This document shows positions 415 through 15,919 of a stretch of DNA of 31,824 nucleotides, piece after piece. Location: positions 1-31,824 of the forward strand of contig CAYOXR010000421.1 in NCBI GenBank assembly GCA_964407955.1, in the 5' to 3' direction. The translations under genes and the position numbers were made by a program. Source of the stretch: an uncultured bacterium (GTDB lineage: Bacteria > Deinococcota > Deinococci > Deinococcales > Trueperaceae). Numbering within the stretch: position 1 is the stretch's first letter; the number at the start of each line of letters is the position of its first letter. The notes under the pieces were generated by a model, which saw nothing but the letters and a program-made list of their open reading frames with translations, was not told where the DNA came from and ran no database searches.

Positions 415-1668
415 TCAATCGCCGCAGTGCGGGACGCCGAGGAAGCCCGAGTTGAAGTCGTCCAGGATGCCTGCAAAGGTCCTGGCCTGGTCCCTGGACT
501 CGGCGCTGTCGATGTCGTGGTCCGAGAAGTAGTCCTCGGCCCACAGCAGCGCCGTGCTCACGGCGGAGGGAGCGCTCGCGACGACGCCTCCGACGTTCAA
601 CATGGCGGCCACGTACTGGTGCGCCAGCTGCACGTAGGCGCGCCCCTTCACCGGCTCGTTCAGGATGGCAAGCCACGACAGCGTCGAGCTGTAGAAGTCC
701 GCCTCAGGATCGAACGGGCTCGGCCACGGCAGGTGGTTCTTCCAGTAGCCGAGGGTGTAGGTGCACGTGACGACGGGCGGCGTGCACGTCAGGTCGACGG
801 TCGCCGTCGCCGGCGAGCCTATGATCGCGCCTGCGGCATCGAGCAGCGACGCCGTGTTCGCGACCTGCGCGGGAGCGCAGACCAGGCCCGCGTCGCGGGT
901 GAGCTGCTTCACCAACACGTAGTCGCCCTGGGCCGGATCCTCGACGGTGAGCGTGTTGTTCTCCGGCATGAACTGGAACGGCACGTCGGCGCCATCGAGC
1001 GTCAACGACACGATCGAAACGCTGTACCCAGCGGGGATTTCCTCCTCGTCGACGAGCGTGGCCGCGGTCGCGCCGCCGCTCGAGGCACTCGAGAAGGCGA
1101 AGCTCTGCTCGAACGGCCCGGCATATCCGGCCTCATCCGTCACCGTCACCACGTCGACGACGTCGCCGCCACAGTCGGTCACGTCGATGGCGTCGAAGGG
1201 CCCGTCCTGCGTTACGAGGTCGATGCTGCCATTCGCGGCCACGGCTACATTCTTGAGCGAGAACACCTTGTGCTGCAACAGTCCGCCGAGATCGGGCTGG
1301 CCCGAGCCGGCATCGCAGTTCAGCATGTCGACGACGGTGAAGCTCCCCTCACCGCCAGCGGTCTCGGTCAACGTCAGGGAGTCGAGGGTGGCGGTGTAAC
1401 CCTCATCCGCACCGCCGCTGCTGCCCACTGTCAGCGTGTAGTGCAGCTCCGCCGTGCCGGACGTAACGTCGACACTCGTGGGTGACGCAGTCTTGGCAAT
1501 CGTCGGCGTTCCGGGACCACCAGGAGTCACCGTCATCTGCTTGCTGATGGTGATGTTCGGGAACACCGCCTCCTGCGGCGACAATGTGCCGGGCCCCGCT
1601 TGCTGGCTGCACGCCCCGAGCCAGACCAGCACCCCGACCCCCAACACGCCTAGCAACCATCTACGCAT
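415..1668 (-). CDS. Exported lipoprotein (417 aa) with beta-rich Ig/DUF11-like repeats and a C-terminal GYWKNH domain
   Basis: Start moved to ATG 1668 behind SD GGAGGAGG. Signal MRRWLLGVLGVGVLVWLGA-C has a lipobox. Thr/Val-rich strands (TIAKTASP, VANTASL), six further Cys, and C-terminal CTYTLGYWKNH...AYVQLAHQYVAAMLN. Confidence 0.75.
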   Translation of the reverse strand: MRRWLLGVLGVGVLVWLGACSQQAGPGTLSPQEAVFPNITISKQMTVTPGGPGTPTIAKTASPTSVDVTSGTAELHYTLTVGSSGGADEGYTATLDSLTLTETAGGEGSFTVVDMLNCDAGSGQPDLGGLLQHKVFSLKNVAVAANGSIDLVTQDGPFDAIDVTDCGGDVVDVVTVTDEAGYAGPFEQSFAFSSASSGGATAATLVDEEEIPAGYSVSIVSLTLDGADVPFQFMPENNTLTVEDPAQGDYVLVKQLTRDAGLVCAPAQVANTASLLDAAGAIIGSPATATVDLTCTPPVVTCTYTLGYWKNHLPWPSPFDPEADFYSSTLSWLAILNEPVKGRAYVQLAHQYVAAMLNVGGVVASAPSAVSTALLWAEDYFSDHDIDSAESRDQARTFAGILDDFNSGFLGVPHCGD

Positions 1669-1838
1669 GCTCGCAACCTCCTCCAAACGCGGTCCGCCGG
1701 CCGTCATCGCGTGCCGCGGCCGCCCTGCTTCCAAGACGGGGCTGCATGGTGTCCTGCAGCCTCGTGCCCTCCTAGTCGGTGCGGTACCGCCCTTCCCTCC
1801 TTGTCAAGCCTGGTCCAACAACGCCCCCCTTCTGCCCT

Positions 1839-2312
1839 TCACTCCGCCTCGACGGTGCCGCCGCCGTCCTCGCCCGACGTCGGGACCTGGCACGTCAGCG
1901 TGGCGATGGTCGCAGGCTGGATGGAACCGCCGGGCAACGGAACGATCAGGATCGGGACGTCATAGGTGCCGTAGCTGCCGGCAGTGATCACGAGCGTGCC
2001 CGTCTCCGCACCGGCCGGCACGAGGAGCATCAGCCCTCCGTCGTCCCTTACGAAGCGGAAGTCCGCGGCCAGGCCGGTCGGGAAGGTCGCGCCGAACGCG
2101 CTGCCGCCTCCCAACCAGTCGGCATTTGTGCCGAAGTCGCCGCCCTCGAACACCACCAGGGCGCCCGGCCACAGCTGGCAGTCGTTCCTGACGGGGGTCG
2201 GTGGCTTGGGCTGCCCTTCCTGCGCGCAGGCGGCCAGCGCCAACGCGACTCCCACGGCCAGCGCCAGGATGAGCGCCAGCGGCCTGCCTGTGTCGTTGCG
2301 TCTGGCTGGCAT
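1839..2312 (-). CDS. Small lipoprotein (157 aa), IPT/TIG-like beta-sandwich
   Basis: ATG 2312 with SD GAGGAG, 14 nt after the stop of the large gene. Hydrophobic stretch plus LAA-C lipobox. VPAGAETGTLVIT resembles IPT/TIG domains, and two Cys flank the domain. Confidence 0.7.
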   Translation of the reverse strand: MPARRNDTGRPLALILALAVGVALALAACAQEGQPKPPTPVRNDCQLWPGALVVFEGGDFGTNADWLGGGSAFGATFPTGLAADFRFVRDDGGLMLLVPAGAETGTLVITAGSYGTYDVPILIVPLPGGSIQPATIATLTCQVPTSGEDGGGTVEAE

Positions 2313-2326
2313 CTTGTCACGCTCCT

Positions 2327-5300
2327 CTACGGGCCCTCGCCGGGCGCCGCCTGGCCACCCGTCGGCTCGCTTTCGGCCACGGCGATCAGCGTCATGCCCC
2401 CCACGTCCTCGCCGTCCACCAGCAAGCGAGCGGCCTGCGGCCCCGGCGTGGTCGGTACCTGCCAATGACCCTTCCAGTGGTAGCCGTCCTCGCTCGTGAG
2501 CGACACCTCCTTCCCGTCCGGGAGCACGATCCGCGCAGAAGCTGCCTTGAACATGGTGCCCAGGGACAGCTGCGCGTCCGTTCCCACCGCGCCGCGGAGA
2601 GCGGACGGGCTGAAAGGTGGGTCGTCGGTGACGGTCACCGTCGCGTCACGCTCCACCCCCGCACCGTCGCCCTCGGCGCGGATCGTCAGCTTCAGCTCGC
2701 CGAGTGGCGTGTCGGGATCGATGCGTACGGTCGCGGCCCAGGCGCCGCCCTCCCGCCTCGTCAGCGGAATGTCGGCCCCTCCGGGCAGCGTCACCACGAC
2801 GCGCGTTGGCTCCCCTACCGTGAACGCCTGCACCTGCAGCTCGGCGCCCCGCGGCACCCGCGCCGGACTCACCCGCGGGAGCACGGCCAGGCGCGAGCCG
2901 GCGAAGGTCTGGACGACCTCCCGGCGCGGACGTGCCGCGCCGACCGCGACCGGGTCGTGGCGCTCGCCGGGCTGCAGCGTCACCGCAACGGGCTCCCCGG
3001 TGGCACGCATGCCCGGCGGCAACAGGGCAGCGTCCGCCCGAACGGTGTAGCTTCCCGGCAGCAGTCCGGTCGCCAGAGCGTTGCCGTCCCCGTCCGTCTG
3101 GATCGAGCGACTGCTGGCACCTTCGATCAGCACGCCCCCATACGGGATGCCTTGCTCGCCCTCGTCTCGCACGCCGTTGTCGTTGTCGTCGTAGAAGACG
3201 GATACCGGCAGCGACGCCACCGGGGCGAAGGCGAGGTCGCGCTTGACGTCCTGGTTCTCCACGAGAGTCACCTGCGCAGTGCCCTCGAGGTCGACCGTGG
3301 CAGGCAGCCCCTTGGGGAAACTGAGTTGGTAGGTGCCTTCGGGCACGCGCAAGCTGAACGCCCCCTTGCCGTCCGTCACCGTCTGCAGGCCTGCCACCGC
3401 CACGGTGAGTCCGGTCAGGGGCGCCTCCTCGGGCTGGCGCACGCCGTCGAGGTTGGCGTCGAGGAAGGCCGTGCCGGCCAACTCGGCGCCGCGGCGCCCG
3501 CCGAACGACTGGACCACCACATCGGGGGTGTCGAAGGCGAACTCGAAGGTGTGCGAGATCCCGAGGCTGAAGCGGTGCGTCCCCGGGGTGGCGAAGTCGA
3601 GCACGCTGGTCGGTGACGTGAGGCTGTAGAGCCCCGTCAGAACCACGCCCGGGGCCAGGAAGTCGTCGACCGTGACGCCCAACGTCACCGTCTCGCTCGA
3701 GGATGGCTCGATGGGTTTGAGGACGCGGTCGTAGGCGACCAGCGTGTGCACGCCGTTCGCGAAGTTCTGCACCCAGCTGGCATTGATGTCGTCTTCGACG
3801 CTGAGGGTATCGGTGCGCGATTGGATGTACGCGTAGCCAAGCGCCAGGTCCGTGCCCAGGCCGAAACTGTACGTTGCCGTGAACGCGCCCTTGAAGTCGA
3901 AGGCCTGCGGCCTGTCGGCGTACGCCGTCGACTCCTGATACACGCCCAGGAGCTGGAGCTGCACGCCGAACACCCCAAGGTTGAGCCCCAGCGAGTAGCG
4001 ATCCCAGATCGGACCATCGCCTAGCAGCACGTCCCCGTGCGTGTAGCCCAGGCCCAGACTCCCGCCGAAGTCGACGCTCGGCGAGTAGGCGAGGACCACG
4101 TGCGGCGACACCGTCCAGGACATCGACGGGGAGATGCCGTCGTCGGTGCGGAGGAGGCTCCCCCGCACATCGGTGGTGACCCCGCGCAACGGCTGCGCGT
4201 ACAGCGTGAGATAGTTGGTCCAGGAGCTATCCGTCGGCGAGAAGCTGTAGCTCGTGCTGGCCCGTACGCCATAGGGGTACGGCAGCCGGCTGCCGCCGCT
4301 CAAGCCGATGCTGTGCGTGCCCGATTGCGGCACTCCCGAGTAGGACTCGGAGACCTCGAAATCTCGGTTGCGCCAGCCGAACGACTGGTTGACTGCCGCG
4401 ACCACGCTGTAGGGCTGCCCGGGCTGGTCGTACCCGGCCAGCTGGGCACCGAGCCCCAGATCGAGGCTGGGGAGCAGCGGCACGGAGTAGTCGGCCCTGA
4501 GGCTGTCCGTTCGCGTTCCGCCCACCTGGCTCGAGCCGGCACTCAGCCGCAGGTCGAGCCACGGCAGCTGACTGATGCCGCGCACCGTCACGCCGTAGAC
4601 GGTGTCGGCGGGCGAGGGAATCAGGCGGCCGTCGACCTCCACGCCCCACGCCCCCACGTCGAAGTGGGTCGCGACACTGTAGTGACCCGGGTAGGCGTCC
4701 ATCGCGGCATTCCAGCTCGGCGCGTTGAGAGCCAGGCTGAGCCCCGAAGGCGTGTTCGCGAACGGGTGGCTCACATCTCCGGCGAGCCGGTTGGTGTGCG
4801 CCTCGCCCGACACGAAGTCCGACAGGTCGCCTTCGATGGCGGGCGCAACACTGTAGGCGAGAGAACCCTCGAAGTCTCCCTGATAGACCTTCGCGTTCGC
4901 CTGCACGCCCGTCTCCAGGCTCACCACCAGTTGCGGCGCGGTGGCGGGCCGGCCCTCCACCGCCGAGCTGTACCAGCGGCTCGCGACCACCACGCGCGTC
5001 GTCACCTCCGGATCGTTTGTGGACGCCGCCTCCAGATAGAACACGCTTCGGTAGCCGTTCGAGGTGAGCGTCGTCTGCGTCACCGTGACATCGATCGACG
5101 CCCGTTCGCCGGGGTCGAGCTCGACGGCACTCGGCGCGATGTGCACGCGCCACTTGGAGTACACCGCCCGCAGCTCGATGCGGTCGCGGGCGTTTCCACG
5201 GTTGGTGATCGTCGTGTGAAGATACAGGGGTGAGCCGATCCTAGCCGTTAGCTCAGGGACGGGCTGCAAGGACACGCCAGCATCCAGTGCGACTCGCAGG

Positions 5301-5677
5301 CGTGCCCGGGCCGAAGCGGTCTCGACGCCGCCGTCCAAGAGCCGCAGCGCCACGGTGAAGGCGGCACCCGCCTCGGTCCCCTCGCGAACCACTGCCGTGA
5401 CGAACACCACGGCGTGGCCCGAAACCTGCACGTTGCCCTTGCTCGTGAGCACCTGGACGGCCGGCGGCACGTCCACCTCAAAAGCGAACTGCCCCTCCCC
5501 GTCAACGCCGAAGACCAGGGTGGCGTACGTTCCGGGCTTGACCAGGCTCTCCGCCGGCGGCGTCAGCGTGACGGCTCTGGCGATCGGTGCGAGGAGGAGC
5601 ACCGCCAGCGCGGCCGCTCCGCCGACGAGACCCGGCACGCGCGTGCGTCCTCGTGGCGCCCGGCGCCCTCGCCGCAT
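2327..5677 (-). CDS. Large exported protein (1116 aa), predicted outer-membrane beta-barrel with Ig-like and SdrD-B-like domains; usher-like
   Basis: Signal peptide ending PIARA. N-terminal NEW3/COG1470-like Ig domains (TITNRGNARDRIEL, VELDPGERASIDVTV). About 460 aa of alternating amphipathic strands follow (approx. nt 4930-3540), then two SdrD-B-like repeats (GTAFLDANLDGVRQPEE, VFYDDNDNGVRDEGE). ATG lies 1 nt after the upstream stop. Confidence 0.7.
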   Translation of the reverse strand: MRRGRRAPRGRTRVPGLVGGAAALAVLLLAPIARAVTLTPPAESLVKPGTYATLVFGVDGEGQFAFEVDVPPAVQVLTSKGNVQVSGHAVVFVTAVVREGTEAGAAFTVALRLLDGGVETASARARLRVALDAGVSLQPVPELTARIGSPLYLHTTITNRGNARDRIELRAVYSKWRVHIAPSAVELDPGERASIDVTVTQTTLTSNGYRSVFYLEAASTNDPEVTTRVVVASRWYSSAVEGRPATAPQLVVSLETGVQANAKVYQGDFEGSLAYSVAPAIEGDLSDFVSGEAHTNRLAGDVSHPFANTPSGLSLALNAPSWNAAMDAYPGHYSVATHFDVGAWGVEVDGRLIPSPADTVYGVTVRGISQLPWLDLRLSAGSSQVGGTRTDSLRADYSVPLLPSLDLGLGAQLAGYDQPGQPYSVVAAVNQSFGWRNRDFEVSESYSGVPQSGTHSIGLSGGSRLPYPYGVRASTSYSFSPTDSSWTNYLTLYAQPLRGVTTDVRGSLLRTDDGISPSMSWTVSPHVVLAYSPSVDFGGSLGLGYTHGDVLLGDGPIWDRYSLGLNLGVFGVQLQLLGVYQESTAYADRPQAFDFKGAFTATYSFGLGTDLALGYAYIQSRTDTLSVEDDINASWVQNFANGVHTLVAYDRVLKPIEPSSSETVTLGVTVDDFLAPGVVLTGLYSLTSPTSVLDFATPGTHRFSLGISHTFEFAFDTPDVVVQSFGGRRGAELAGTAFLDANLDGVRQPEEAPLTGLTVAVAGLQTVTDGKGAFSLRVPEGTYQLSFPKGLPATVDLEGTAQVTLVENQDVKRDLAFAPVASLPVSVFYDDNDNGVRDEGEQGIPYGGVLIEGASSRSIQTDGDGNALATGLLPGSYTVRADAALLPPGMRATGEPVAVTLQPGERHDPVAVGAARPRREVVQTFAGSRLAVLPRVSPARVPRGAELQVQAFTVGEPTRVVVTLPGGADIPLTRREGGAWAATVRIDPDTPLGELKLTIRAEGDGAGVERDATVTVTDDPPFSPSALRGAVGTDAQLSLGTMFKAASARIVLPDGKEVSLTSEDGYHWKGHWQVPTTPGPQAARLLVDGEDVGGMTLIAVAESEPTGGQAAPGEGP

Positions 5678-5678
5678 G

Positions 5679-6224
5679 TCAAGGGGCTCCCGGACTTCCG
5701 CTCCCAGTCAGGTAGGCGTCGACCGCGAAGCGGCCGGCCGTCTCGGTGCCCGTCAGCTCGATCGCGAACTCGACATCGACCTGGCGCCAATCCGCGGTCG
5801 GGCCGGACCCTACGAAGATCACCTGCGGAACGGCCGAGGCGCGCTGCCACAGACCTCCATCCACGCGGTACAGCACGTGATCCGGCGAGATGCCTCCCTG
5901 TCCCTGCTCGCCCGCCAGATCGGGCACTTGCAGGAGCAGGCTCCAGGGCCCCTGGGCGTTGCTGAACACCTGGACCGGCAACACGCCGCCTTCCGGCGTC
6001 GTCGCCGCGTAGCGGGCCGGGAACGCCGCCGGCGGGTAATCGTCGATCGAGATGGCAAAGGCGATGTGCGTAGTGGGCACACGCACCGACACCACGTCGG
6101 GGACCAGCACGTCGACGTGCCAGCTCGACTGGGCCCAGACCGCCGACGCCGCCAGCAGCGCGAGCGTCACCACCGCCGCTCGCCACATCCGCGCGGACAC
6201 CGCGCCAACACGCATCGCCGTCAT
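5679..6224 (-). CDS. Exported beta-sandwich protein (181 aa), putative minor filament subunit
   Basis: ATG 6224 with SD GAGGTG (alternative ATG 6290). Signal peptide ending AVWA-Q. Shares three motifs with the 7331-8218 protein. Confidence 0.65.
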   Translation of the reverse strand: MTAMRVGAVSARMWRAAVVTLALLAASAVWAQSSWHVDVLVPDVVSVRVPTTHIAFAISIDDYPPAAFPARYAATTPEGGVLPVQVFSNAQGPWSLLLQVPDLAGEQGQGGISPDHVLYRVDGGLWQRASAVPQVIFVGSGPTADWRQVDVEFAIELTGTETAGRFAVDAYLTGSGSPGAP

Positions 6225-6301
6225 CGAAGTCACCTCACTGGAGCGAGCCCGGTGCTGGCTGCTCGCCACGCTGTGCACGTCGTATGTCATCCCGTCCCCC
6301 C

Positions 6302-7210
6302 TCACTGGCCCGCCGTCGGCGCCTCACCCGGCGCGACCGGGTGACGCCCGACTTCGGGAGCGGGCTCGGTCAGGGCCGTGTCGAGCACGAAGCTGTACTC
6401 GCCGGCCACGTCCTTGGTGGGGTCGCCGTAGTTGTAGACGACCAGAGCCGAGTAGGCACCCGCCGGCAGCGGTCCAAGCACGTGGTACAGCCGCACGTTG
6501 GTCTCCCCGGGCAGCGTCACACGCAGCGGGAACTCTTCATGCCAGAGGGTTTTCCCGGCGGCGTTGCGCAGCTCCAGGTAGCCGTTGAGGCGCTGCGCGA
6601 CGTTGCCGGTGTTGGCGTACTGGATAGCGAGCGTGTAGTCCCCATCGGGAGACTTTGGAGGCACGCCGAAGATGCCCGTGATCTCACCCTCCGGATTCTC
6701 GGGCGGAACGTTCACGTAGATCACGTGCCCGACGCGAACATTGAAGGTCGCCAGGGGCACGCCGGGGACGGGCGTCGGGTCCACCCCGACGGCGAAGAGC
6801 ACCCCCCAGTGCGAGCCCGCGGCCGCGTCCTTCGGTACGGCGATCGTGTAGCGAATCGTCGCCTTGCCATTGGCGTCGAGCGTGACCTCCGCGGGGTTGA
6901 AGGTGATCCAGGGCGTCACGCTGCGCTCGAGCGTCCCTGCGGCCGGGTATTCGGGCGAACCGTCCTCGAGATAGCGCCAGTCTGACAGTGCCATGCGGAC
7001 ACGCGCCCGGGTATCGCCGGAGTTCGCCACCGTGACGACCCCGTCGATGGTGTCGCCAGCCTGTGCCCGGTACAGGGAGACGGGGGGATCGACCGACAGC
7101 ATGCGCTGAGCGGAAGCCAGGCCTCCGCCCATGCAGGCGAGCAGCAGTGCCCCTGCCAGCAGGCGTGAGAGGCGCGCGAGCGGGAGCGTAATGGAAGGCG
7201 AGTAGGCCAT
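6302..7210 (-). CDS. Periplasmic two-domain DUF916/PapD-like chaperone (302 aa)
   Basis: ATG 7210 with SD GGAG and a signal peptide. VTVANSGD, PWITFNPAEVTLDANGKATIRYTIAVPKDAAAGSHWGVLF and YANTGNVAQRLNGYLEL match DUF916/DUF3324-like and PapD-like patterns as I recall them. Confidence 0.7.
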   Translation of the reverse strand: MAYSPSITLPLARLSRLLAGALLLACMGGGLASAQRMLSVDPPVSLYRAQAGDTIDGVVTVANSGDTRARVRMALSDWRYLEDGSPEYPAAGTLERSVTPWITFNPAEVTLDANGKATIRYTIAVPKDAAAGSHWGVLFAVGVDPTPVPGVPLATFNVRVGHVIYVNVPPENPEGEITGIFGVPPKSPDGDYTLAIQYANTGNVAQRLNGYLELRNAAGKTLWHEEFPLRVTLPGETNVRLYHVLGPLPAGAYSALVVYNYGDPTKDVAGEYSFVLDTALTEPAPEVGRHPVAPGEAPTAGQ

Positions 7211-7283
7211 GCTGGACTCCGTAGTCACGGCGCACCGCCGCGCGGCCGGCGCGTGCTCGGCAGCCACGGCGTGCAGGCTGGGT

Positions 7284-7320
7284 CCCGTGCGCCCCGACGC
7301 ATTCCATCGGGGCGCACGGG
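7284..7320 (-). terminator. Strong intergenic hairpin just downstream of the major subunit gene (attenuator or mRNA stabiliser)
   Basis: Perfect 14-bp inverted repeat CCCGTGCGCCCCGA/TCGGGGCGCACGGG, extended by a G-U and a G-C pair in the minus-strand RNA. It lies 10 nt after the stop at 7331 and has no U-tract. Confidence 0.6.
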
Positions 7321-7330
7321 TTGGGTGCTG

Positions 7331-8218
7331 CTAGTCCCCCACCGTCCAAGCGGTGGTGGTCATGGTGTAGTCGAGCGTCGCGGTCGTCGTACCCGCGGTC
7401 TCGCCGTCGATCTTGACTGCGATGATGACCAGGTCATCGAGCCAGCTCTTGTAGCCGCACAGCGCCGGGTTCTGGGCTGCCTGCGCACCCGTGGGACCGT
7501 GCCCCAGCGACTCGGGGACGAGGTGCAGCGAATCGCCCTGATCCAGGCGGTAGAAGCCGGTGGGCGCGCCGAAGGTATCGCACGGGTTGTCCTGGATGTA
7601 CAGGTTCTCGATGGCCGCCGTGCCTTCATCGGTCCGCGTCACCGTCAGATCCCACTGCGTGCCGTTGCTGAACTTCTGCAGCAGGAAGGAGCGGTAGCAA
7701 ACGAAGTGGCCCTTGCTACCCACGATCAGTTCGCCGTTCGCGTCGATCTGCATCGGCGGGTAGGCGGTCACAATGCCGCCCGCGTTGACGATCTGCACGT
7801 TCGGCCAGCCTGCAGACGCGTAAGACGTCCCGAGCGGCAAGTACTGGACTTGGTTGTAGAAGTCCGCGCCCAGCTGCGAGGTGACGTCCTGGGCAGAGCT
7901 GCCGTAGACGCACACCATGTTCCCGCCGTCGATGACCGCGGCTTCAGACTTGAAGTCGGAGACCGCCAGGTGCGGCCAGCCTTCGCCGTCCAGTGCAGTC
8001 AGGTCGAAGCCGATCGTGGTGACGTCGAGGTGCAGCGCCGTCGCGTAAGGCAGAATCAGCTGCACTTCCTGCGTCACCGAGGCGCTGTTGTTCTCCTGGC
8101 CGCTGCCCTTGGCGTAGGCATCCGGGCCGTCACCCGTCGTAGGGCTCAGCACCGGCCCCTGCGCCATGGCGAGCGCCGTGAGCACCGCCACGAGCACAAA
8201 CAACATCTTCCGTAACAC
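7331..8218 (-). CDS. Exported protein (295 aa), putative major filament (pilin-like) subunit
   Basis: GTG 8218 with a strong SD AGGAGG. Sec signal ending ALAMA-Q. N-terminal strand SASVTQEVQLILP, four Cys, FSNGTQWDL motif and C-terminal strand AGTTTATLDYTMTT. First gene of the cluster. Confidence 0.7.
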   Translation of the reverse strand: MLRKMLFVLVAVLTALAMAQGPVLSPTTGDGPDAYAKGSGQENNSASVTQEVQLILPYATALHLDVTTIGFDLTALDGEGWPHLAVSDFKSEAAVIDGGNMVCVYGSSAQDVTSQLGADFYNQVQYLPLGTSYASAGWPNVQIVNAGGIVTAYPPMQIDANGELIVGSKGHFVCYRSFLLQKFSNGTQWDLTVTRTDEGTAAIENLYIQDNPCDTFGAPTGFYRLDQGDSLHLVPESLGHGPTGAQAAQNPALCGYKSWLDDLVIIAVKIDGETAGTTTATLDYTMTTTAWTVGD

Positions 8219-8425
8219 GTGATCCCTCCTAAGGATTGCCCCGTTCAGGGCGTGGAAACGGACGTTGTCTCGTTGTCTCGGTCGAGTTGCCTGGGCCCTC
8301 CCAGGTCGCTTCTCACCCCCTTCCACGGACCGCGCGGCACCCGAGTACAAGCCCGTTGGTGTCCGAGCCAGATCCATCGCGCCGCACCCCATCGGCCCTT
8401 TTGTGCCAAGATGAGAGTACGGTGA

Positions 8426-8545
8426 GGGGCGTGACGCCCCCGTTAACGAGGAAGGCGCGCTCCAGACCGTGATTCCGCGCCCCATTACACCCAGAGGGGT
8501 GCGCACGGAGCAGGTCATGCAGAGGGTAATGGCGTCCGTAATGGG
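8426..8545. promoter_or_regulatory. Candidate operator motifs in the divergent control region
   Basis: 7-1-7 palindrome GGGGCGT-G-ACGCCCC (8426-8440), CGTTAACG (8441-8448), and GTAATGG at 8526-8532, 8538-8544 and inverted at 8482-8488. Confidence 0.3.
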
Positions 8546-8740
8546 CGGGGCGCGATCGCTCTGGACGACCGGCAGGCGGCTACAGGCGAGCGGTACGGGG
8601 GTGCCCGATGTCAGTCAGGACCGCGTGCGTCGTCGGCAGTGCGCGCCCAAGAACCTTCCGCCGAGAGGGAACCGCCGCGCACCACCCGGGCAACCTGCCG
8701 GAACGTCCGCAGCGGTGCCGGGAGAGGAGCACGCATCGCC

Positions 8741-10552
8741 TTGACCGACCCCGCCGTACTTCATCTCTGTGGGCACGCCCACCTCATGTTCAACGGTGCG
8801 AGCATCACCCTACAGCGCAAAGGCCTCGCGTTGCTCGGCTATCTGGCCCTCGAGGGCGCCACTGCAAGGGAGCGGGTGGCGGACTTGCTGTGGGGCCACG
8901 AAGGCTCGGCCAACAACCTGCGAGTGGAGCTGTTCCGGCTGCGCAGCGCGCTGCGCAGGGCGGCTCCCCAGGCCTTCCCGGCCGGCACCGACCCGTTGTC
9001 GATGCCACCGAGCATCGAGACGGCCCCGATCGATGTACCCGAGGAGCTGATGCTCGGCCTCGAGGATGTGTCGCCCGAGTTCGGCGAATGGCTGGTGTCG
9101 CAACGAGCCAGCCGAAGCCGCGTCAACAGCGACGACTTCCTGCGTACGGACCAGGTCGAGGCGCTCGCCCGCGAGGTCAGGCCACCCCACGTGGTGCTGC
9201 TGCGCGGCGAGCCCGAGTCCGGGCGCGAGACGTTCGCGCGCTCGCTCGCGCGCCTGCTCGGGCTGCCCATCGTCTACGGCGGCATCGGGAACACGGCGGC
9301 GGTCCACTACCTGAGCGAGGACGAGGACTACGATTCCGAGCTCGTGCGGCGCATGATCGCCGACAAGCACTCGGTGTGGGTGATGGCCTGCTCGCCATAC
9401 GCCGGCGACACGCGCTCGATGCTGGAGGTTCGCGCCGGCTACCCGGCTGCGCGGCTGAAGCACGTGACGCTCGACCCGCTGTCGTGGCCCGAGGCGCGCG
9501 CGGGCCTGCTATCCGACCTGCCTTTCGACGAGGCCGCCCGTTACTACGTCTTCAGCGGCGGCCATCTGGGCTTCCTGAGCGAGCTGCTCGCCACCCGGCC
9601 GAAGCGCGAGCCCTCCCAGGTGGTGCCGCTGCCGCAGCGCATCCGGGCGACCTTCCTGCTGAAGGCAAGGGCGCTGGGCGAGGTCGCACTGGACGTCGCC
9701 CGCTACCTTTCCGTCCATCCCGGGCCCATCCCCGAGCCACTGATCCAGGCTTTCGAGGCCGAGCCGCACCTGGATGCACTCGAGTCAGGCGGCTGGCTGC
9801 GCTACGACGGTGCCTACCGCTTCACCACCGAGGCGGGTCGGCGCGTGATGTACGACTCGATGGGACCGGGACAACGCGTGCGCGCCCATCGCCGGGCAGC
9901 AGCGGCTCTCGAGAGCACGCCCCATCGCATCGCGGCCGCGTATCACCTCGAGCTGAGCGGCGTCGAGGCCAACTGGCGGCGTCTGGCCCGAAACTGCCCG
10001 AGCTGGACGCAGGCGGTCCTGGCACCGTACGCGGAGTGGAATCGAGCGCACCTGCCACTGCCCTTCCGGGACGCGGAGCTCGGCCCCGAGCTGGCCCTGC
10101 TCGCCAACCACACGGTCCACGTCGGGAAGCCCGTGACGAACGGAGACGTCACGTGGTGGCTGCTGCCGACGGAAGCGGAAACGCGGTCCACGGAGTTCGA
10201 GCTTCCCGGCTCCGCGGCCGTTCTCCGCGTCCATGCCCGCGCCTACGTCCACAACCCGGCGGGGATCGGCCTGAGCTGCGACGCCGTCCCTCTGCGCCTG
10301 TCCGTGTTCGGGTCCCACAACCGGAGCGTCGTGTGGGCCGACGTCGAGGGTCCCGGGCGGCTGGCAGACGGGACCCATGTGCTGCCGCTGCGCAGCGAGT
10401 TCGAAGCAGCCTTCATCGTCGACCAGCACGCGCTGCGCCTGGAGAGTCGCGCCTTCGCTGGCGTGCTCGAGATCCATCTCACGCTCAATCGACTCAGGGA
10501 CGGCGACGAGCCGGTCGGCCAACACGGCGTCTCCGCTCTCGATCTGACATAG
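8741..10552 (+). CDS. SARP/AfsR-like (wHTH-BTAD-related) transcriptional regulator, 603 aa, with degenerate P-loop
   Basis: TTG 8741 after SD GAGAGGAG. The N-terminus KGLALLGYLALEGATARERVADLLWG...NNLRVELFRLR is typical of SARP DNA-binding domains. VVLLRGEPESGRET sits at the Walker A position, and the C-terminus is beta-rich. Confidence 0.75.
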   Translation: MTDPAVLHLCGHAHLMFNGASITLQRKGLALLGYLALEGATARERVADLLWGHEGSANNLRVELFRLRSALRRAAPQAFPAGTDPLSMPPSIETAPIDVPEELMLGLEDVSPEFGEWLVSQRASRSRVNSDDFLRTDQVEALAREVRPPHVVLLRGEPESGRETFARSLARLLGLPIVYGGIGNTAAVHYLSEDEDYDSELVRRMIADKHSVWVMACSPYAGDTRSMLEVRAGYPAARLKHVTLDPLSWPEARAGLLSDLPFDEAARYYVFSGGHLGFLSELLATRPKREPSQVVPLPQRIRATFLLKARALGEVALDVARYLSVHPGPIPEPLIQAFEAEPHLDALESGGWLRYDGAYRFTTEAGRRVMYDSMGPGQRVRAHRRAAAALESTPHRIAAAYHLELSGVEANWRRLARNCPSWTQAVLAPYAEWNRAHLPLPFRDAELGPELALLANHTVHVGKPVTNGDVTWWLLPTEAETRSTEFELPGSAAVLRVHARAYVHNPAGIGLSCDAVPLRLSVFGSHNRSVVWADVEGPGRLADGTHVLPLRSEFEAAFIVDQHALRLESRAFAGVLEIHLTLNRLRDGDEPVGQHGVSALDLT

Positions 10553-10724: not shown

Positions 10725-11750
10725 GTGCGGGCTGGAGACCACGACCGCCGGCCGGACGACGCCATCGGGCGTGGCCGCGAGCGCGGGCACGAGCATGCTC
10801 ACGCACACGACCATGCCGTCCCCGTCGCCGGTCGCGCTTTCGGGCTCGGGATCGTCCTCAACACCGTCTACGTGGTACTGGAAGCTGTCGTGGGCATCGT
10901 CATCGGCTCGGTCGGTCTGATCTCCGATGCAGGCCACAACGCCAGCGACGTGCTCAGTTTGGTCGCGGCGTGGGGCGGACAGCGTTTGTCCAGGCGGCCG
11001 CCGTCGCGCGACTTCAGCTACGGGCTGCCGCGCGCGCCCATCCTCGGCTCGCTCTTCAACGCGCTTCTGCTCTTCGGCGCCATGGGCGCGGTCAGCTTCG
11101 AGGCCGCGAGGCGTCTCGCGCATCCCCAGCCGCTTCCCGCTCTGCCCATCGTCTACGTCACGGCGGTGGGCCTGTTCGTGAACTTCGGGACGGCTCTGCT
11201 GTTCGCGCGTGGCCGTGACGACCTCAACGTGCGCGCGGCATTCGTGCACATGCTTGCGGACGGTGCGTCCACGTCCGGGGTGTTGATCGCGGGCCTCGTC
11301 ATCCACTTCACCGGCGCCTTCTGGGTTGACCCGGCCGTGAGCCTGGCGATCGTGGTGCTGGTGCTGTGGAGCACCTGGGGGCTGTTCACGCAGTCTGTGC
11401 GAATGCTCGTGGACGCCGTGCCTCAAGGCATCGACCTCAACGCCGTGCGGGCGACTTTGACCGACCTGCCCGGCGTGGCCTCCGTGCACGACGTGCACGT
11501 GTGGCCCCTGTCGACCCGACAGGTGGCGGCCAGCGCCCACCTGGTGCTCGAGCGACCCGTGCAGGAGCCGAACGCGCTGCTGCGTGACGCCTGCCGCCGC
11601 CTCCGTGAGCGCTTCCGCATCGGCCATGCCACGTTGCAGGTCGAGTTCGGCGAGCCGGCCGATCCGTGCGGGCTGCTCGAGCGTCATGAGCTCAGCGAGC
11701 CCGTCGCCGTCCGTCACGAGTCGCGCACGTCTCGCGATTCCGGCGCCTGA
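10725..11750 (+). CDS. Cation diffusion facilitator (CzcD/ZitB-like Zn/Co/Cd exporter)
   Basis: His-rich N-terminus HEHAHAHDH, TM2 SDAGHNASD, TM5 AFVHMLAD, six TM helices and C-terminal VHDVHVW and HATLQVE. Confidence 0.9.
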   Translation: MRAGDHDRRPDDAIGRGRERGHEHAHAHDHAVPVAGRAFGLGIVLNTVYVVLEAVVGIVIGSVGLISDAGHNASDVLSLVAAWGGQRLSRRPPSRDFSYGLPRAPILGSLFNALLLFGAMGAVSFEAARRLAHPQPLPALPIVYVTAVGLFVNFGTALLFARGRDDLNVRAAFVHMLADGASTSGVLIAGLVIHFTGAFWVDPAVSLAIVVLVLWSTWGLFTQSVRMLVDAVPQGIDLNAVRATLTDLPGVASVHDVHVWPLSTRQVAASAHLVLERPVQEPNALLRDACRRLRERFRIGHATLQVEFGEPADPCGLLERHELSEPVAVRHESRTSRDSGA

Positions 11751-11777
11751 GTGCCTCGCCGAGCGCCGGATGCGAAG

Positions 11778-11795
11778 GGCGGCCCCACCGCCGCC
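11778..11795 (+). repeat. Direct repeat copy 1 flanking the Nramp-like gene
   Basis: GGCGGCCCCACCGCcGCC, 17 of 18 identical to 13270-13287. Confidence 0.4.
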
Positions 11796-11869
11796 TCCCC
11801 GCGCCCTGAAGCGGGCGACCCGCCGCCGGCCGGCGGGAATGGCCGCCCGACGCGGTCGCGCCCGCCATC

Positions 11870-11883
11870 GGGACATTTGTCCC
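11870..11883. promoter_or_regulatory. Palindrome upstream of the Nramp-like gene, candidate operator
   Basis: GGGACA-TT-TGTCCC. It overlaps a possible -35 TTGTCC (11877-11882) lying 19 nt from TATGGT (11902-11907). Confidence 0.3.
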
Positions 11884-11918
11884 AGCTGGCCGGGTTGAGG
11901 CTATGGTCTGCTCGCAAC

Positions 11919-13235
11919 GTGGAATTCCGAGGGGCCGACTCAGGATTCGCCGACCGAGGATCCGCGCTCGACGGCGGGGCGCCGTCGACGGGCGCTCCGC
12001 ATGCGCAGGCTCGGCGCCGCGCAAGGGTGGTCGGCGGCCTGCTGGCGGTCATGGGACCCGGCCTTGTGGTCATGCTGGCCGACACCGACGCCGGCAGCGT
12101 GGTCACCGCCGCGCAGAGCGGCGCCAGCTGGGGCCTGGGGCTGCTTTGGCTCCAGGTCGCGCTGATTCCGGTGCTGTTCGTGGTCCAGGAGCTGACGGTG
12201 CGCCTGGGAAGCGTCACCGGCAAGGGGCATGGCGAGCTCATCCGCGAGCACTTCGGCACCGGCTGGGCCTGGATTTCCGTCGTGACGCTCGCGATCGCGG
12301 GCGTCGGCGCGCTGTGCACGGAGTTCGCGGGCGTGGCCGGCGCCGGCGAGGTGTTCGGCTTGCCGCCGTGGCTGACGGTGGGCACGGCGGTGATGGCGCT
12401 CGGCCTCGTCGCCGCTCGCGGCAGCTACCGGCGGGTGGAGCTTGTGGCAGCGGCCCTGGGCAGCCTCGAGCTGCTCTACGTGCTGGTGGCGTGGCATGCG
12501 CATCCGCTGCTGGACGGCGCCCTGACCGGCCTTCGGCAGATCCCCTGGCATGACGGTGGGTACCTGTTCCTGATCGCCGCCAACATCGGCGCGGTGATCA
12601 TGCCCTGGATGGTCTTCTACCAGCAGTCGGCCATCGTCGAGAAGGGCCTGGGCCCGCACGACCTCCGCGCCGCCCGCATCGACACCGCCGTCGGCGCCGT
12701 GCTCACACAGCTGATCATGGCCGCGGTGCTGATCAGCACCGCGGTTACGCTGCACGGCGCGGCCGCGGGCAACGGAGCGTTGTCGACGGTGCCGGGGATC
12801 GCCCGCGCGCTGATGCCACTGCTCGGCCCCACCTACGGCGCCGCCCTGTTCGCCCTGGGGATGCTGGGCGCCTCCCTGGTCGCTGCTCTGGTCGTCTCGC
12901 TGGCTGTCTCCTGGGGTCTGGGCGAGGTCGCGGGCTACCGCCACTCGCTGGCGGACGGCGCCGGCGAGGCACCCTGGTTCTATGGCGTGTACCTACTGGC
13001 TCTGGGCGCCAGCGCCGCGCTGGTGTTGTCCGGCATCAACCTGATCGGCCTGAGCGTAGCGGTCCAGGTCATGAACGCCCTGTTGCTGCCGGTCGTGCTG
13101 GGCTTCCTGTTCGTGCTGGCCCGGCGCGCCCTGCCTTGGCCGCATCGCCTTCGCGGCCCGGCCGCCTTGGCGGTCGGCCTGGTGCTGGGCGTCACGACGG
13201 TGCTCGGCGTCCTTGCCGCGGTTCTCGCGCTGTGA
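11919..13235 (+). CDS. Nramp-family (NRMT-related) divalent cation transporter; start uncertain
   Basis: MGPGLVVMLADTDAGSVVTAAQSGA, VQELTVRLG, GKGHGELIRE, NIGAVIMPWMVFYQQS and about 11 TM segments. The ORF is open from 11751; GTG 11919 is a tentative start. Confidence 0.85.
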   Translation: MEFRGADSGFADRGSALDGGAPSTGAPHAQARRRARVVGGLLAVMGPGLVVMLADTDAGSVVTAAQSGASWGLGLLWLQVALIPVLFVVQELTVRLGSVTGKGHGELIREHFGTGWAWISVVTLAIAGVGALCTEFAGVAGAGEVFGLPPWLTVGTAVMALGLVAARGSYRRVELVAAALGSLELLYVLVAWHAHPLLDGALTGLRQIPWHDGGYLFLIAANIGAVIMPWMVFYQQSAIVEKGLGPHDLRAARIDTAVGAVLTQLIMAAVLISTAVTLHGAAAGNGALSTVPGIARALMPLLGPTYGAALFALGMLGASLVAALVVSLAVSWGLGEVAGYRHSLADGAGEAPWFYGVYLLALGASAALVLSGINLIGLSVAVQVMNALLLPVVLGFLFVLARRALPWPHRLRGPAALAVGLVLGVTTVLGVLAAVLAL

Positions 13236-13269
13236 GGGTCTCGACGCTCCCGGCCAACGAGTCCTCGAC

Positions 13270-13287
13270 GGCGGCCCCACCGCGGCC
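13270..13287 (+). repeat. Direct repeat copy 2 flanking the Nramp-like gene
   Basis: GGCGGCCCCACCGCgGCC, matches 11778-11795. Confidence 0.4.
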
Positions 13288-13331
13288 CGCCCCCGGCCGA
13301 CCCTGATCACGGCTGCCGTACGCCCGGCGAC

Positions 13332-13360
13332 TTGACCCGACCCTCGCTCGAGCCTATCCT
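13332..13360 (+). promoter_or_regulatory. Sigma70-type promoter of copA
   Basis: TTGACC (13332-13337), 17-nt spacer, TATCCT (13355-13360). Confidence 0.75.
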
Positions 13361-13370
13361 GAGGCAGATC

Positions 13371-13389
13371 CCCACCCCCGGGGGGTGGG
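13371..13389. promoter_or_regulatory. CsoR/RcnR-type operator
   Basis: Perfect 9-1-9 palindrome CCCACCCCC-G-GGGGGTGGG just downstream of the -10. C-tract/G-tract operators are the established CsoR-family signature upstream of copA genes. Confidence 0.7.
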
Positions 13390-13414
13390 CATTCGCTCGA
13401 CCGAGGTGATGATG

Positions 13415-15919
13415 ATGGCTACCGTCCAGATCGGCGTCGAAGGCATGACCTGCGCGAGCTGCTCCGGTCGTGTCGAACGCGCTTTGAACAAGGTGCACGG
13501 CGTCAGCGAAGCGAACGTGAATCTCGCCACCGAACGCGCCAGCGTCACCTTCGACCCGTCGCTGGTGAACCCCGAGGCCTTCCTCGCCGCCATCACCGGC
13601 AGCGGCTACGCGGCCACCACGGCCCACGCCGACCTCGGCATCACCGGCATGACCTGTGCCAGCTGCTCCGGCCGCGTCGAACGCGCCCTCAACAGGCTCG
13701 ACGGCGTGCTCGAAGCCGCCGTCAACCTGGCCACCGAGCGAGCGTCCATCACCTACCTCCCCGACACCGTCACCCCCGCCCGGCTCAAGGCGGTCGTGCG
13801 TGAGACCGGTTACGACGTCCTCGAAGAAGGCGTGGGCCAGGACGCCAGCGACGTCGAACGAGAAGCGCACGATCGGCACGTCGCCGGCCTGCGCCGCGAC
13901 CTCATCGTCGCCGCCGCGTTCGCCGCCCCGCTGGTGCTCTTCGTCATGCTGCCCATGCTCATCCCCGGCCTGCAGCACGGCATCGACGCGGCCCTCGGCG
14001 CGTTCGCCGTCAACGTCATCGCCTTCGCGCTCGCCAGCGTGGTGCAGTTCGGGCCCGCAAGGCGCTTCTACCGCCCCGGCTGGACCAGCCTCCGTCACGG
14101 CAGCCCCGACATGAACGCCCTCGTCATGATCGGTTCCAGCGCCGCCTACGCCTACTCCGTCATCGCCACGTTCTTCCCGGAGCTGCTGCCGGCAGGGACG
14201 GCGCACACCTACTTCGAGGCCTCCGCCGCCATCATCGCGCTGATCCTGGTGGGCAAGTACCTCGAAGCCATCACCAAGGGCCGCACCAGCGAGGCCATCA
14301 AGAAGCTCCTCAGCCTCCAGTCCAAGACGGCACGTGTGGAACGTGACGGCGTGGAGCGCGAGCTCCCCATCGACCAGGTCGTCCCCGGTGACGTGATCGC
14401 CGTTCGTCCCGGCGAACGCCTGCCCGTCGACGGCACCGTCCTCACAGGCAGCAGCTACGTCGACGAGTCCATGATCACCGGCGAGCCCGTCCCCGCTCTC
14501 AAGCAAGCGGGCACCGAGGTGGTCGGAGGGACCGTCAACCGCAACGGCAGCCTGCGCTTCGAAGCCACCAAGGTCGGCGCCGACACCCTGCTCGCTCAGA
14601 TCATCAAGATGGTCCAGGACGCCCAGGCCGCCAAGATGCCCATCCAAGCGCTCGCCGACAGGGTCGTCCGCTACTTCGTCCCCGTGGTCATGAGCCTGGC
14701 TGCCATCACCTTCGGGGTGTGGCTCGTCTTCGGCCCGGCGCCCGCCCTCACCTACGCGCTCGTGAACATGGTCGCCGTGCTGATCATCGCCTGCCCCTGC
14801 GCCATGGGCCTCGCCACCCCCACCAGCATCATGGTGGGCACCGGCAAAGGCGCCGAGCTCGGCATCCTCTTCCGCCGCGGCGCCGCCCTCCAGACCCTCC
14901 AACAAGCCGACACCGTCGCCCTCGACAAGACCGGCACCCTCACCAAGGGCAAGCCCGAGCTCACCGACCTGACCACGGCCGGCGCGCTGGACGACGACGC
15001 CACCCTCCGCCTCATCGCCGCGGTCGAGCGCGACTCCGAGCACCCCATCGGCCAGGCCATCGTTCACGCCGCCGCCCAGCGCGGCCTGGACCTGCCCGAC
15101 GCCAGCGACTTCGCAGCCGATCCGGGCTACGGCGTCAGCGCCACCGTCGACGGAAAGCGCGTGCAGGTCGGCGCCGACCGGCTCATGCGCAAGCTCGGCC
15201 ACGACACCGGCGCCCTCCAAGCCAGCGCCGAGCGCCTCGCCGACGAAGGCAAGAGCCCGCTGTACGCCGCCGTCGACGGCGAACTCGCGGCCATTCTCGC
15301 CGTCTCCGACCCCCTCAAGGACACCACCCCTGCCGCCATCGAAGCCCTGCACAAGGCCGGCCTGAACGTCGCCATGATCACCGGCGACAACCGCCGCACC
15401 GCCCACGCCATCGCCCGGCAGCTCGGCATCGACCACGTGCTGGCCGACGTCCTCCCCGACGGCAAGGTCGACGCCGTCAAGAGCCTCCAGCAAGGCGGCG
15501 CCAAGGTCGCCTTCGTCGGCGACGGCATCAACGACGCCCCCGCCCTGGCGCAAGCCGACATCGGCATCGCCATCGGCACCGGCACCGACATCGCCATCGA
15601 AGCCGCCGACGTCATCCTCATGAGCGGGCAGCTGGACGGAATCCCCAACGCCATCGCGCTGTCCAGGGCCACCATCACCAACATCAAGCAGAACCTCTTC
15701 TGGGCCTTCATCTACAACGTCATCCTCATCCCCGTCGCCGCCGGCGTTCTCTACCCCGGCCTCCACGTCCTCCTCAACCCCATCATCGCCGCCGCCGCCA
15801 TGGGCACAAGCAGCATCTTCGTGCTCACCAACGCGCTGCGACTCAAGACCTTCCGCCCACGCGGCCCGCAACCTGCCGCAGCGGCCCCGGCGCTCGAGCC
15901 CAGGCCGGCAGCGGCATGA
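13415..15919 (+). CDS. copA: Cu(I)-translocating P1B-1 ATPase with two N-terminal HMA domains
   Basis: GMTCASC x2, TGEP, CPC, DKTGT, SEHP, GDGIND, TM7 YN and TM8 MGTSS. SD GAGGTG precedes ATG at 13409, 13412 or 13415. Confidence 0.95.

Follow-up and report, generated by a model that had tools for sequence, protein, structure and literature searches.

A conserved Deinococcota gene module that pairs a WxLIP-type chaperone relative with a predicted usher-like barrel: a candidate chaperone-usher-type assembly system

Introduction

Does a gene cluster of an uncultured member of the Deinococcota encode a machine that assembles a surface fibre, and if so, from which parts? The cluster in question comprises seven genes at positions 415–10552 of a contig (CAYOXR010000421.1, GenBank assembly GCA_964407955.1) of a salt-marsh metagenome-assembled genome (MAG) assigned to the Trueperaceae; we refer to the whole stretch of DNA that was analysed, 31,824 nucleotides (nt) with a G+C content of ~70%, as the window. 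A first-pass annotation, made from the letters of the window alone, had read six co-oriented genes for exported proteins and a divergent regulator as a chaperone-usher-like surface filament system. Here we describe comparative and structural-modelling analyses which indicate that the genes form one module, that one product is related to the WxLIP chaperones of Gram-positive WxL systems, that another is modelled as a large barrel, and that the cluster probably represents a new variety of chaperone-usher-type assembly.

Chaperone-usher pili are viewed as a Proteobacteria-centred invention. Archaic chaperone-usher systems have been reported in Deinococcus-Thermus (PMC4654587). WxLIP proteins, as described by Hassan et al. 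in 2023, combine DUF916, DUF3324 and a transmembrane helix and are typically encoded in clusters with two WxL proteins; the view before 2026 was that they bind or stabilise surface proteins and not that they act as polymerisation chaperones (PMC10599100). A bioRxiv preprint of 17 October 2026 reports, from genetics, pull-downs and a 3.5 Å cryo-electron microscopy map, that the Enterococcus faecalis WxLIP protein ElrE is a membrane-anchored donor-strand chaperone that primes the WxL pilin ElrD, that ElrD polymerises by donor-strand exchange, and that the ElrE model resembles CsuC, CfaA, Caf1M and EcpB (10.64898/2026.10.17.759780). The same preprint calls WxL chaperones 'disjoint' from PapD-type chaperones, finds a transmembrane helix in 96.7% of them, and reports the WxL system as confined to Bacillota, with no mention of diderm relatives (10.64898/2026.10.17.759780).

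Results

The seven open reading frames (ORFs) of the cluster are real by their coding signature (G+C at third codon positions, GC3, of 0.82–0.88), with six of them (A to F) on the minus strand and the seventh (R) on the plus strand, as the first-pass annotation had described. Signal peptides and lipoboxes were judged by eye from the translations, without a signal-peptide predictor; each of A to D begins with a hydrophobic signal sequence that ends in A-x-A, and E and F have lipoboxes. After cleavage at A-x-A, mature A, B and C are predicted to start with glutamine, both here and in the majority of orthologues, and this residue could cyclise to pyroglutamate. The features of the cluster are as follows.

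A, 7331–8218, minus strand: 295 amino acids (aa), secreted, GTG start 6 nt past AGGAGG; candidate major structural subunit.
Hairpin, 7284–7320, minus strand: perfect 16-bp G+C-rich stem that directly follows the A stop codon; candidate element for attenuation or mRNA stabilisation.
B, 6302–7210, minus strand: 302 aa, soluble secreted protein with two WxLIP-like (DUF916/DUF3324-like) domains; candidate periplasmic donor-strand chaperone.
C, 5679–6224, minus strand: 181 aa, secreted, encoded immediately upstream of D; candidate minor subunit (initiator, adaptor or terminator).
D, 2327–5677, minus strand: 1116 aa, secreted; candidate outer-membrane usher-like pore.
E, 1839–2312, minus strand: 157-aa lipoprotein with lipobox LALAAC; putative accessory protein.
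F, 415–1668, minus strand: 417-aa lipoprotein with lipobox WLGAC and a conserved C-terminal Cys-containing domain; putative accessory protein.
R, 8639–10552, plus strand: 637-aa ORF, divergent putative regulator; start uncertain (8639 or ~8741).
Divergent control region between R and A, 8219–8638, no strand assigned: intergenic; holds the Shine-Dalgarno sequence AGGAGG of A at 8225–8230.

The seven products were compared by tblastn with ten homologous loci taken with wide flanks, one of them a second cluster of the same genome and the others from five families of the order. The order A-B-C-D is kept in 10/10 of these loci, with C weak or missing in two paralogous clusters, and a homologue of R is present in 8/10, in all eight cases adjoining A on the opposite strand. 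A further 25 Deinococcota loci, from a sample of 301 genomes, have the order B-(extra A-like)-C-D in 24 cases, often followed by E or F; the sole exception, L045, is a short fragment. Overall, 32 of these 35 related loci have a syntenic C. Close homologues of D (E ≤ 1e-30) occur in 66 of the 301 Deinococcota genomes and B-like genes (E ≤ 1e-10) in 124, and comparison of the hit tables by eye places a B-like gene within ~4 kb, on the same contig, of nearly every D-like place, the exceptions lying at contig ends. This neighbourhood rule covers two more distant B'/D' subtypes as well. Within the phylum, the relatives of the locus belong to Trueperaceae-like MAGs, Thermus, Deinococcus and Deinobacterium. 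The gene order, which the first-pass annotation had likened to that of chaperone-usher operons, is thus kept far beyond chance, and the genes almost certainly form one functional module.

Several of these loci have features of their own. The second cluster of the same genome (L013; contig C137:1-7205) is a paralogous A-B-(gap)-D cluster, 31–40% identical, with ~620 nt between B and D in which a diverged C-like gene may lie. Several loci (L023, L026, L029, L030, L033 and L014) have, between B and C, a gene for an extra A-like protein of ~200–260 aa that resembles the C-terminal half of A, which would give those operons three subunit types. The D and B homologues of L024 (G220:C3) contain several in-frame stops (TAG, TAA and TGA), and the operon copy there is probably decaying. 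At least two more distant subtypes occur in Deinococcota, B' (E ~1e-33), which goes with a D' of ~953 aa, and B'' (E ~1e-20), which goes with a D'' of ~1200 aa; examples lie at G061:C7:13565-17619 and G004:C12:75569-80023, and some genomes of the family designated f4 carry two types.

Outside the phylum, we observed three times the order of one or more small secreted proteins, a B-like protein and a D-like protein of 829–995 aa with SdrD_B and CarboxypepD_reg domains. The carriers are Limnochorda pilosa (complete genome), one metagenome contig and a MAG whose only label is 'bacterium'. L. pilosa is a diderm member of the Bacillota, and its B homologue has been named 'fimbrial biogenesis chaperone' by NCBI. 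Two further metagenome contigs carry small secreted and B-like genes together, with no D-like gene on the fetched stretch, and in these the contig ends on one side. One of them, the Joint Genome Institute (JGI) metagenome contig L048, has the unit [~236 aa][~218 aa][B-like] in tandem duplicate; the unit adjoins genes for two TPR-like secreted proteins and for a bona fide Trans_reg_C+TPR regulator.

The first-pass annotation had recognised a DUF916-type protein in B. Taken alone, B gave only sub-threshold Pfam matches, to fn3_5 and, at E = 0.03, to WxLIP_PGBD (DUF916). A profile of 26 close homologues matched Enterococcus faecium WxLIP1 (EfmWxLIP1; PDB 9i25, 9i1y) at E = 0.004, and a broadened profile, made from B and 67 more distant full-length relatives (each at E < 1e-39 to the first profile), matched EfmWxLIP1 at E = 4.1e-10, with profile positions 37–268 aligned to chain positions 23–262 across both the DUF916 and the DUF3324 domain. 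The most frequent Pfam match in the family is PF06030, found in 10/26 members of the first set and in 20/68 of the broadened set (best E in the latter 3.9e-8), all of these matches being below the gathering cut-off. The recognition was therefore correct, and it is strengthened by an alignment that spans both domains; B is, with high probability, homologous to the WxLIP chaperones. The broadened profile also matched the alternate-pathway fimbrial chaperone EcpB, at E = 0.0033. When PF00345 and PF02753 were tested, PapD_N was found in only 1/26 B-family members, at E = 0.087, so that the EcpB match points to a distant relation and not to PapD-like membership. Some B homologues are already labelled 'PapD chaperone' or 'fimbrial biogenesis chaperone' in source databases.

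B has no transmembrane helix and ends in a hydrophilic C-terminus (…EPAPEVGRHPVAPGEAPTAGQ), and its homologues, of 260–320 aa, end after the second domain. The alignment with EfmWxLIP1 sets the best-conserved stretch of the protein, 152–168 (A154, R159, H162, Y165, V166, N167), against the end of that chaperone's first domain. Going by the preprint's numbering of the ElrE donor strand (141–152), this stretch would be the equivalent of that strand. The family is very large: an exhaustive HMMER search with the 26-member profile returned 18,528 representative clusters (defined at 50% identity) at E ≤ 1e-3 and 9,209 at E ≤ 1e-10, most of which span both domains and some of which are tandem duplications. 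We found no published description of this system in the literature searched, and the preprint is silent on diderm relatives; B and its family therefore appear to be unreported soluble relatives of the WxLIP chaperone class.

For the large protein, D, an AlphaFold2 model built on 27 orthologues has a mean predicted local distance difference test score (pLDDT) of 86.4. In this model a signal sequence (1–35) is followed by two immunoglobulin (Ig)-like domains (37–236), by ~26 long antiparallel strands (249–716) with a short insert of 35 residues after strand 2, and by four more Ig-like domains (731–1100). We read the strands, from the secondary-structure list and not from coordinates, as a closed barrel; with an even number of strands, its two flanks would lie on the same side of the membrane. 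Ig-array ciliary proteins rank first overall when the model is compared with the PDB by Foldseek; the best matches that contain a barrel are complexes of the ushers FimD and PapC (E = 5.7e-14 to 3.9e-10, over ~770–840 columns). These are ~4–6 orders of magnitude better than the best match to a TonB-dependent receptor (ChuA, E = 3.5e-8; others ~1e-7 to 1e-6) and 3–7 orders better than the match to MtrB (E = 3.1e-7), whose target-normalised template modelling score (TM-score) of 0.42 is the highest among the matches listed. On this reading of the model, the large protein has the barrel that the first-pass annotation had foreseen, and D is very likely an outer-membrane barrel.

By sequence, D matches only SdrD_B and CarboxypepD_reg in Pfam, both in its C-terminal part, and a D profile searched against PDB sequences found SdrD-type Ig domains only and no usher. 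PF00577, the usher family, has no match anywhere in this genome, which is 89.5% complete. It is found in 11 of the 301 Deinococcota genomes (5 above the cut-off), all of one family (f2) and all away from D genes, a distribution that fits the archaic systems reported in Deinococcus-Thermus. The first domain of B has a relative in the second Ig-like domain of D (142–223; hhalign probability 94.5%, E = 7.5e-8), which lacks the ~22-residue insert that B has at 77–101; judged from this alignment, the pore may carry a chaperone-like docking domain. In two loci D ends before E, and an apparent alignment across both runs through a stop codon. A language-model atlas places D and B beside clusters named 'COG1470 family' and 'PapD-like'.

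We next consider the two small secreted proteins. For A and C, searches of Pfam, NCBIfam and PDB sequences, with profiles of both proteins included, gave no family. A word-indexed search found 119 homologues of A; all of those with an organism name are from Deinococcota, and all of the named ones are 'hypothetical'. The AlphaFold2 model of A (pLDDT 87, predicted TM-score (pTM) 0.80) has no Foldseek match below E = 1e-3 and no enzyme-like match. The sole coherent group of high probability and low root-mean-square deviation among its weak matches consists of donor-strand-complemented chaperone-usher pilins, including PapE (1n12; probability 0.93, TM-score 0.40), FimG (3bfq; 0.95, TM-score 0.42) and CfaB (0.75). 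In the atlas, the named families nearest to A are SCPU and WxL pilin clusters, with a score of 0.89 that is below the reliability line and provides a lead only.

Conservation in A is highest in an N-terminal segment, 42–72 (0.68 versus 0.60 for the body), where it falls on one face (A46 1.0, V48 1.0, Q50 1.0, V52 0.82, L54 0.93, L56 0.82, P57 1.0), the positions between these residues being variable. In the model, residues 21–59 have no regular secondary structure, at a pLDDT of ~85. The C-terminus is conserved as well (G276...A280-x-L282-x-Y284-T285-L), and C has analogous conserved ends, Q-A-T-W-x-V-x-x-L-I-P at the N-terminus and G-x-E-x-A-G-x-Y-x-V at the C-terminus. A similar C-terminal strand, G-x-[YF]-x-x-x-L-x-[YF]-T-[LI], closes the small secreted proteins that neighbour B homologues in five lineages unrelated to one another. 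Chaperone-usher pilins have a conserved glycine and a penultimate tyrosine, which this strand recalls, again as a lead only. A has four cysteines, of which three are invariant (C103, C254 and one between) and C174 is conserved in at least 90% of homologues; this pattern suggests two disulfides in an extracytoplasmic protein, even in the orthologues of thermophilic Thermus. The conserved N- and C-terminal segments fit donor-strand subunits and make A and C suggestive candidates for pilins. Whether they polymerise by donor-strand exchange we put at close to even odds. C had been described as a paralogue of A, a claim that fared poorly: pairwise BLAST of A and C found nothing, and hhalign aligned a single 24-residue N-terminal motif with a probability of 3.8%, which is not significant.

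Signals for high expression are concentrated at A. By eye, it is the only gene of the cluster with a consensus Shine-Dalgarno sequence, which bears out the strong ribosome-binding site of the first-pass annotation. The predicted hairpin is likewise borne out: the 131-nt spacer between A and B folds with z = -4.0, and a perfect stem of ~10–16 bp, different in sequence, occupies the same place after A in 11/11 loci, ten of which are related loci. In the pap and fim operons such an arrangement of Shine-Dalgarno sequence and hairpin gives an excess of major-pilin transcript. A is also the one gene of the cluster that appears in a metatranscriptome: in the single salt-marsh set that shares words with the locus, the only pieces that fall on the 10.4-kb cluster are two 151-nt contigs at 7928–8221, in the 5' part of A, with one mismatch each and a depth of 2, a weak signal that could be DNA carry-over. 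No consensus sigma-70 promoter was found in the intergenic region between R and A.

The remaining genes are less constant. Weak orthologues of E lie downstream of D in 6/35 related loci (L015, L017, L020, L025, L027 and L047), and a conserved counterpart of the C-terminal 150 residues of F lies downstream of D in L016 and in the f4 loci L020 and L034–L044. Neither protein matches Pfam or NCBIfam, and F is also without a usable match in the PDB; roles as tip, anchor or pore accessory are possible for both. R had been labelled a SARP-like regulator. Profile searches of Pfam and the PDB returned nothing beyond marginal winged-helix and P-loop-like signals: Trans_reg_C matched 1/9 orthologues (E = 0.0096), the SaeR DNA-binding domain matched at E = 0.43, and a faint P-loop-like match was seen; BTAD had no match in any of the nine orthologues. 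The N-terminus of R is thus weakly winged-helix-like, and the SARP label did not hold up well. One locus, L019, has three R paralogues within 13 kb (3043–4911, 11757–13685 and 13877–15844), two of them back to back and away from the operon. Beyond R, on the side opposite the operon, positions 10725–15919 of the window hold a metal-transport block with genes for a CDF cation efflux protein, an Nramp protein and a P-type ATPase with two HMA domains. This block is not syntenic with the module in the other genomes compared.

Discussion

A module that combines a chaperone of WxLIP lineage, a new family of usher-like barrels and new families of subunits is most economically read as a chaperone-usher-type assembly line, and we moderately favour the view that the cluster encodes a machine of this type, with non-canonical parts, for a surface fibre or polymer in diderm Deinococcota. 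On the three points on which the first-pass annotation had staked this reading, the results went its way: the genes occur together over five families and outside the phylum, the large protein is modelled with strands that we read as a barrel, and the 295-aa protein has no enzyme-like fold.

Such a machine might work as follows. Sec would export A, B, C and D, and E and F would be lipidated. As a homologue of WxLIP chaperones without a membrane anchor, B would remain soluble in the periplasm and bind freshly exported A and C by inserting into their fold a strand of its first domain, for which A154-x-F-x-V-R159-V-x-H162-x-x-Y165-V-N-V is the candidate. The resulting complexes would dock on periplasmic Ig-like domains of D, a ~26-strand outer-membrane pore at which subunits would be joined and threaded outward; by donor-strand exchange, the conserved amphipathic N-terminal strand of each subunit would take the place that the chaperone strand had filled in the subunit before it. 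With its strong Shine-Dalgarno sequence and a conserved hairpin that would raise its transcript relative to those of the assembly genes, A would be the major subunit; C, joined in some loci by the second A-like protein, would supply minor subunits, and R would control the divergent promoter. We infer the chaperone activity of B on A and C, the donor-strand exchange and the formation of filaments, as well as the roles of C, E, F and R and the location and orientation of D in the membrane, from the comparisons above.

Two sets of observations weigh against this reading, of which the first concerns the putative subunits. Among 40 members of the A family and 21 of the C family, the WxL (PF13731), Fimbrial and SCPU profiles have no match at E ≤ 1; A as a monomer is modelled with confidence as a compact fold; and the matches of A to pilins are weak (E ~0.01, with TM-scores of 0.40–0.42 by target length over ~130 of 295 residues). 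The absence of pilin profiles, the compact monomer and the weak pilin matches would also suit a module that exports or displays non-polymeric surface proteins, in which B would chaperone A and C in the periplasm, D would translocate or anchor them, A and C were monomers or a coat and the whole a two-partner-like or surface-layer accessory system. Its gene module and its export signals would be the same, and the earlier view of WxLIP proteins as binders and stabilisers of surface proteins (PMC10599100) would suit it. We consider this alternative unlikely, because the characterised class to which B is most closely homologous nucleates donor-strand polymerisation, because the most conserved part of A is an amphipathic N-terminal strand that lies outside any sheet in the monomer model, and because two to three different small subunits per locus, together with one that has a high-expression signature, are typical of fibres.

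The second set of observations concerns D, for which the usher-like reading has to be weighed against that of an outer-membrane pore or envelope tether that serves uptake or structure, with A, B and C as accessory binding proteins of the periplasm or surface and no secretion of a polymer. D has no match to PF00577 at E ≤ 1 and thus no sequence similarity to ushers; its barrel depends on our reading of secondary structure; no plug domain was identified in the model; and TM-scores against ushers are low, at 0.2–0.3, as expected for multi-domain models, so that the resemblance is one of architecture and is no proof of homology. Since Ig-array ciliary proteins top the Foldseek list, the usher score may also come partly from the Ig-like domains. 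The model matches TonB-dependent receptors, Occ porins and the 26-strand MtrB as well, and metal transporters are encoded beyond R. CarboxypepD_reg is common at the N-terminus of TonB-dependent receptors of Bacteroidota, which we count in favour of an uptake pore. Against this, D lacks a TonB-box, a plug and any receptor Pfam domain, ushers stand well ahead of the best TonB-dependent receptor in the structural search, the obligate neighbour B belongs to a chaperone family and not to a substrate-binding family, the metal-transporter genes are not syntenic elsewhere, and no cytochrome motifs for an Mtr-like conduit were seen. We therefore regard a pore for uptake or tethering as quite improbable. 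Three specific identities for D were also set aside: a TonB-dependent receptor, in view of the missing plug and receptor domains; an Mtr-like electron conduit, prompted by the TM-score to MtrB, as no cytochrome genes or CXXCH motifs were seen in the translations; and a surface-layer protein like SlpA, as no SLH or coiled-coil domain is present.

We hold it highly improbable that the cluster is nothing more than a divergent branch of the archaic (sigma/Csu-type) chaperone-usher family. That family has the same gene order and is reported in the phylum (PMC4654587), and the label 'PapD' that some databases give to B homologues would suit such a reading. Against it, PF00577 is found in only 11 of the 301 genomes, all of a single family and away from D genes, and is missing from this one; D lacks an usher sequence match even with a profile; A and C lack an SCPU match; and the matches of B are E = 4e-10 for WxLIP, only 0.003 for EcpB and, in 1/26 members, E = 0.087 for PapD_N.

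The chaperone-usher-type assembly line that we favour shares features with two known systems and differs from both. With the WxL pilus of E. faecalis (elrABCDE) it shares a chaperone of the ElrE class, to which B is homologous over both Ig-like domains; the presence of one chaperone gene beside those for two or three small secreted beta-rich proteins, which matches the common layout of a single WxLIP protein plus two WxL proteins; and a conserved amphipathic N-terminal strand in the putative subunits. It differs in that B lacks the C-terminal membrane helix that nearly all WxL chaperones have, in that A and C have no detectable WxL domain, in that none of the six products has a C-terminal LPxTG signal (sortase was not searched for genome-wide), and in that the host is a diderm in which the chaperone has an obligate partner of ~1000 aa that is modelled as an outer-membrane barrel.

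With the classical, alternate and archaic chaperone-usher systems (FimC/FimD, PapD/PapC, CfaA/CfaC, CsuC/CsuD) the cluster shares its operon logic, namely a highly expressed major subunit, a periplasmic chaperone of two Ig domains, one or more minor subunits and a large outer-membrane protein. In the model of D, too, Ig-like domains flank what we read as a barrel, and it is pilins of these systems that A weakly resembles in structure. In contrast to them, no product belongs to PF00577 or PF00345 by sequence; the barrel of D would have ~26 strands, whereas that of ushers has 24; in place of the N-terminal domain and the two C-terminal domains (NTD, CTD1 and CTD2) of ushers, D has six flanking Ig-like domains (CARDB/NPCBM_assoc-like, CarboxypepD_reg and SdrD_B) and no recognised plug; and the subunits are larger (A has 275 aa when mature, with its four conserved cysteines) and fall into no pilin family.

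Automatic annotations in Gemmatimonadota, Bacteroidota, Acidobacteriota and Limnochordia include 'COG1470 family' or CarboxypepD_reg-SdrD_B proteins of ~900–1000 aa with 'PapD-like' neighbours. These clusters are uncharacterised. The same three-gene module was verified in L. pilosa and two metagenomic contigs, and kinship beyond the verified loci rests on language-model similarity and not on alignment. It is a tentative possibility that the B-D module constitutes a third, ancient and widespread donor-strand branch, a 'WxLIP-usher' branch that would be the missing evolutionary link between Gram-negative chaperone-usher systems and Gram-positive WxL pili; its range would then include Deinococcota, diderm Bacillota (Limnochordia) and probably Gemmatimonadota, Acidobacteriota, Bacteroidota and others.

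The principle of donor-strand assembly is known; what is new, going by the literature searched, is that these parts are combined and that the combination occurs in diderm Terrabacteria and in further phyla. This runs against the current account, in which only Bacillota have the WxL-type chaperone system. Soluble homologues of WxL chaperones make up a very large family, and in diderms they are hard-wired to a big protein that is modelled as an usher-like outer-membrane barrel. If the proposed machine is confirmed, it would give extremophile and environmental phyla (Thermus, Deinococcus, Trueperaceae-like MAGs and Limnochorda) a surface fibre of a new class, and would add a new family of thermostable, self-assembling protein fibres with its secretion pore. 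It would also offer a testable account of how donor-strand assembly systems relate to one another across the monoderm/diderm divide, and the operon described here may link the Gram-negative and the Gram-positive pathways.

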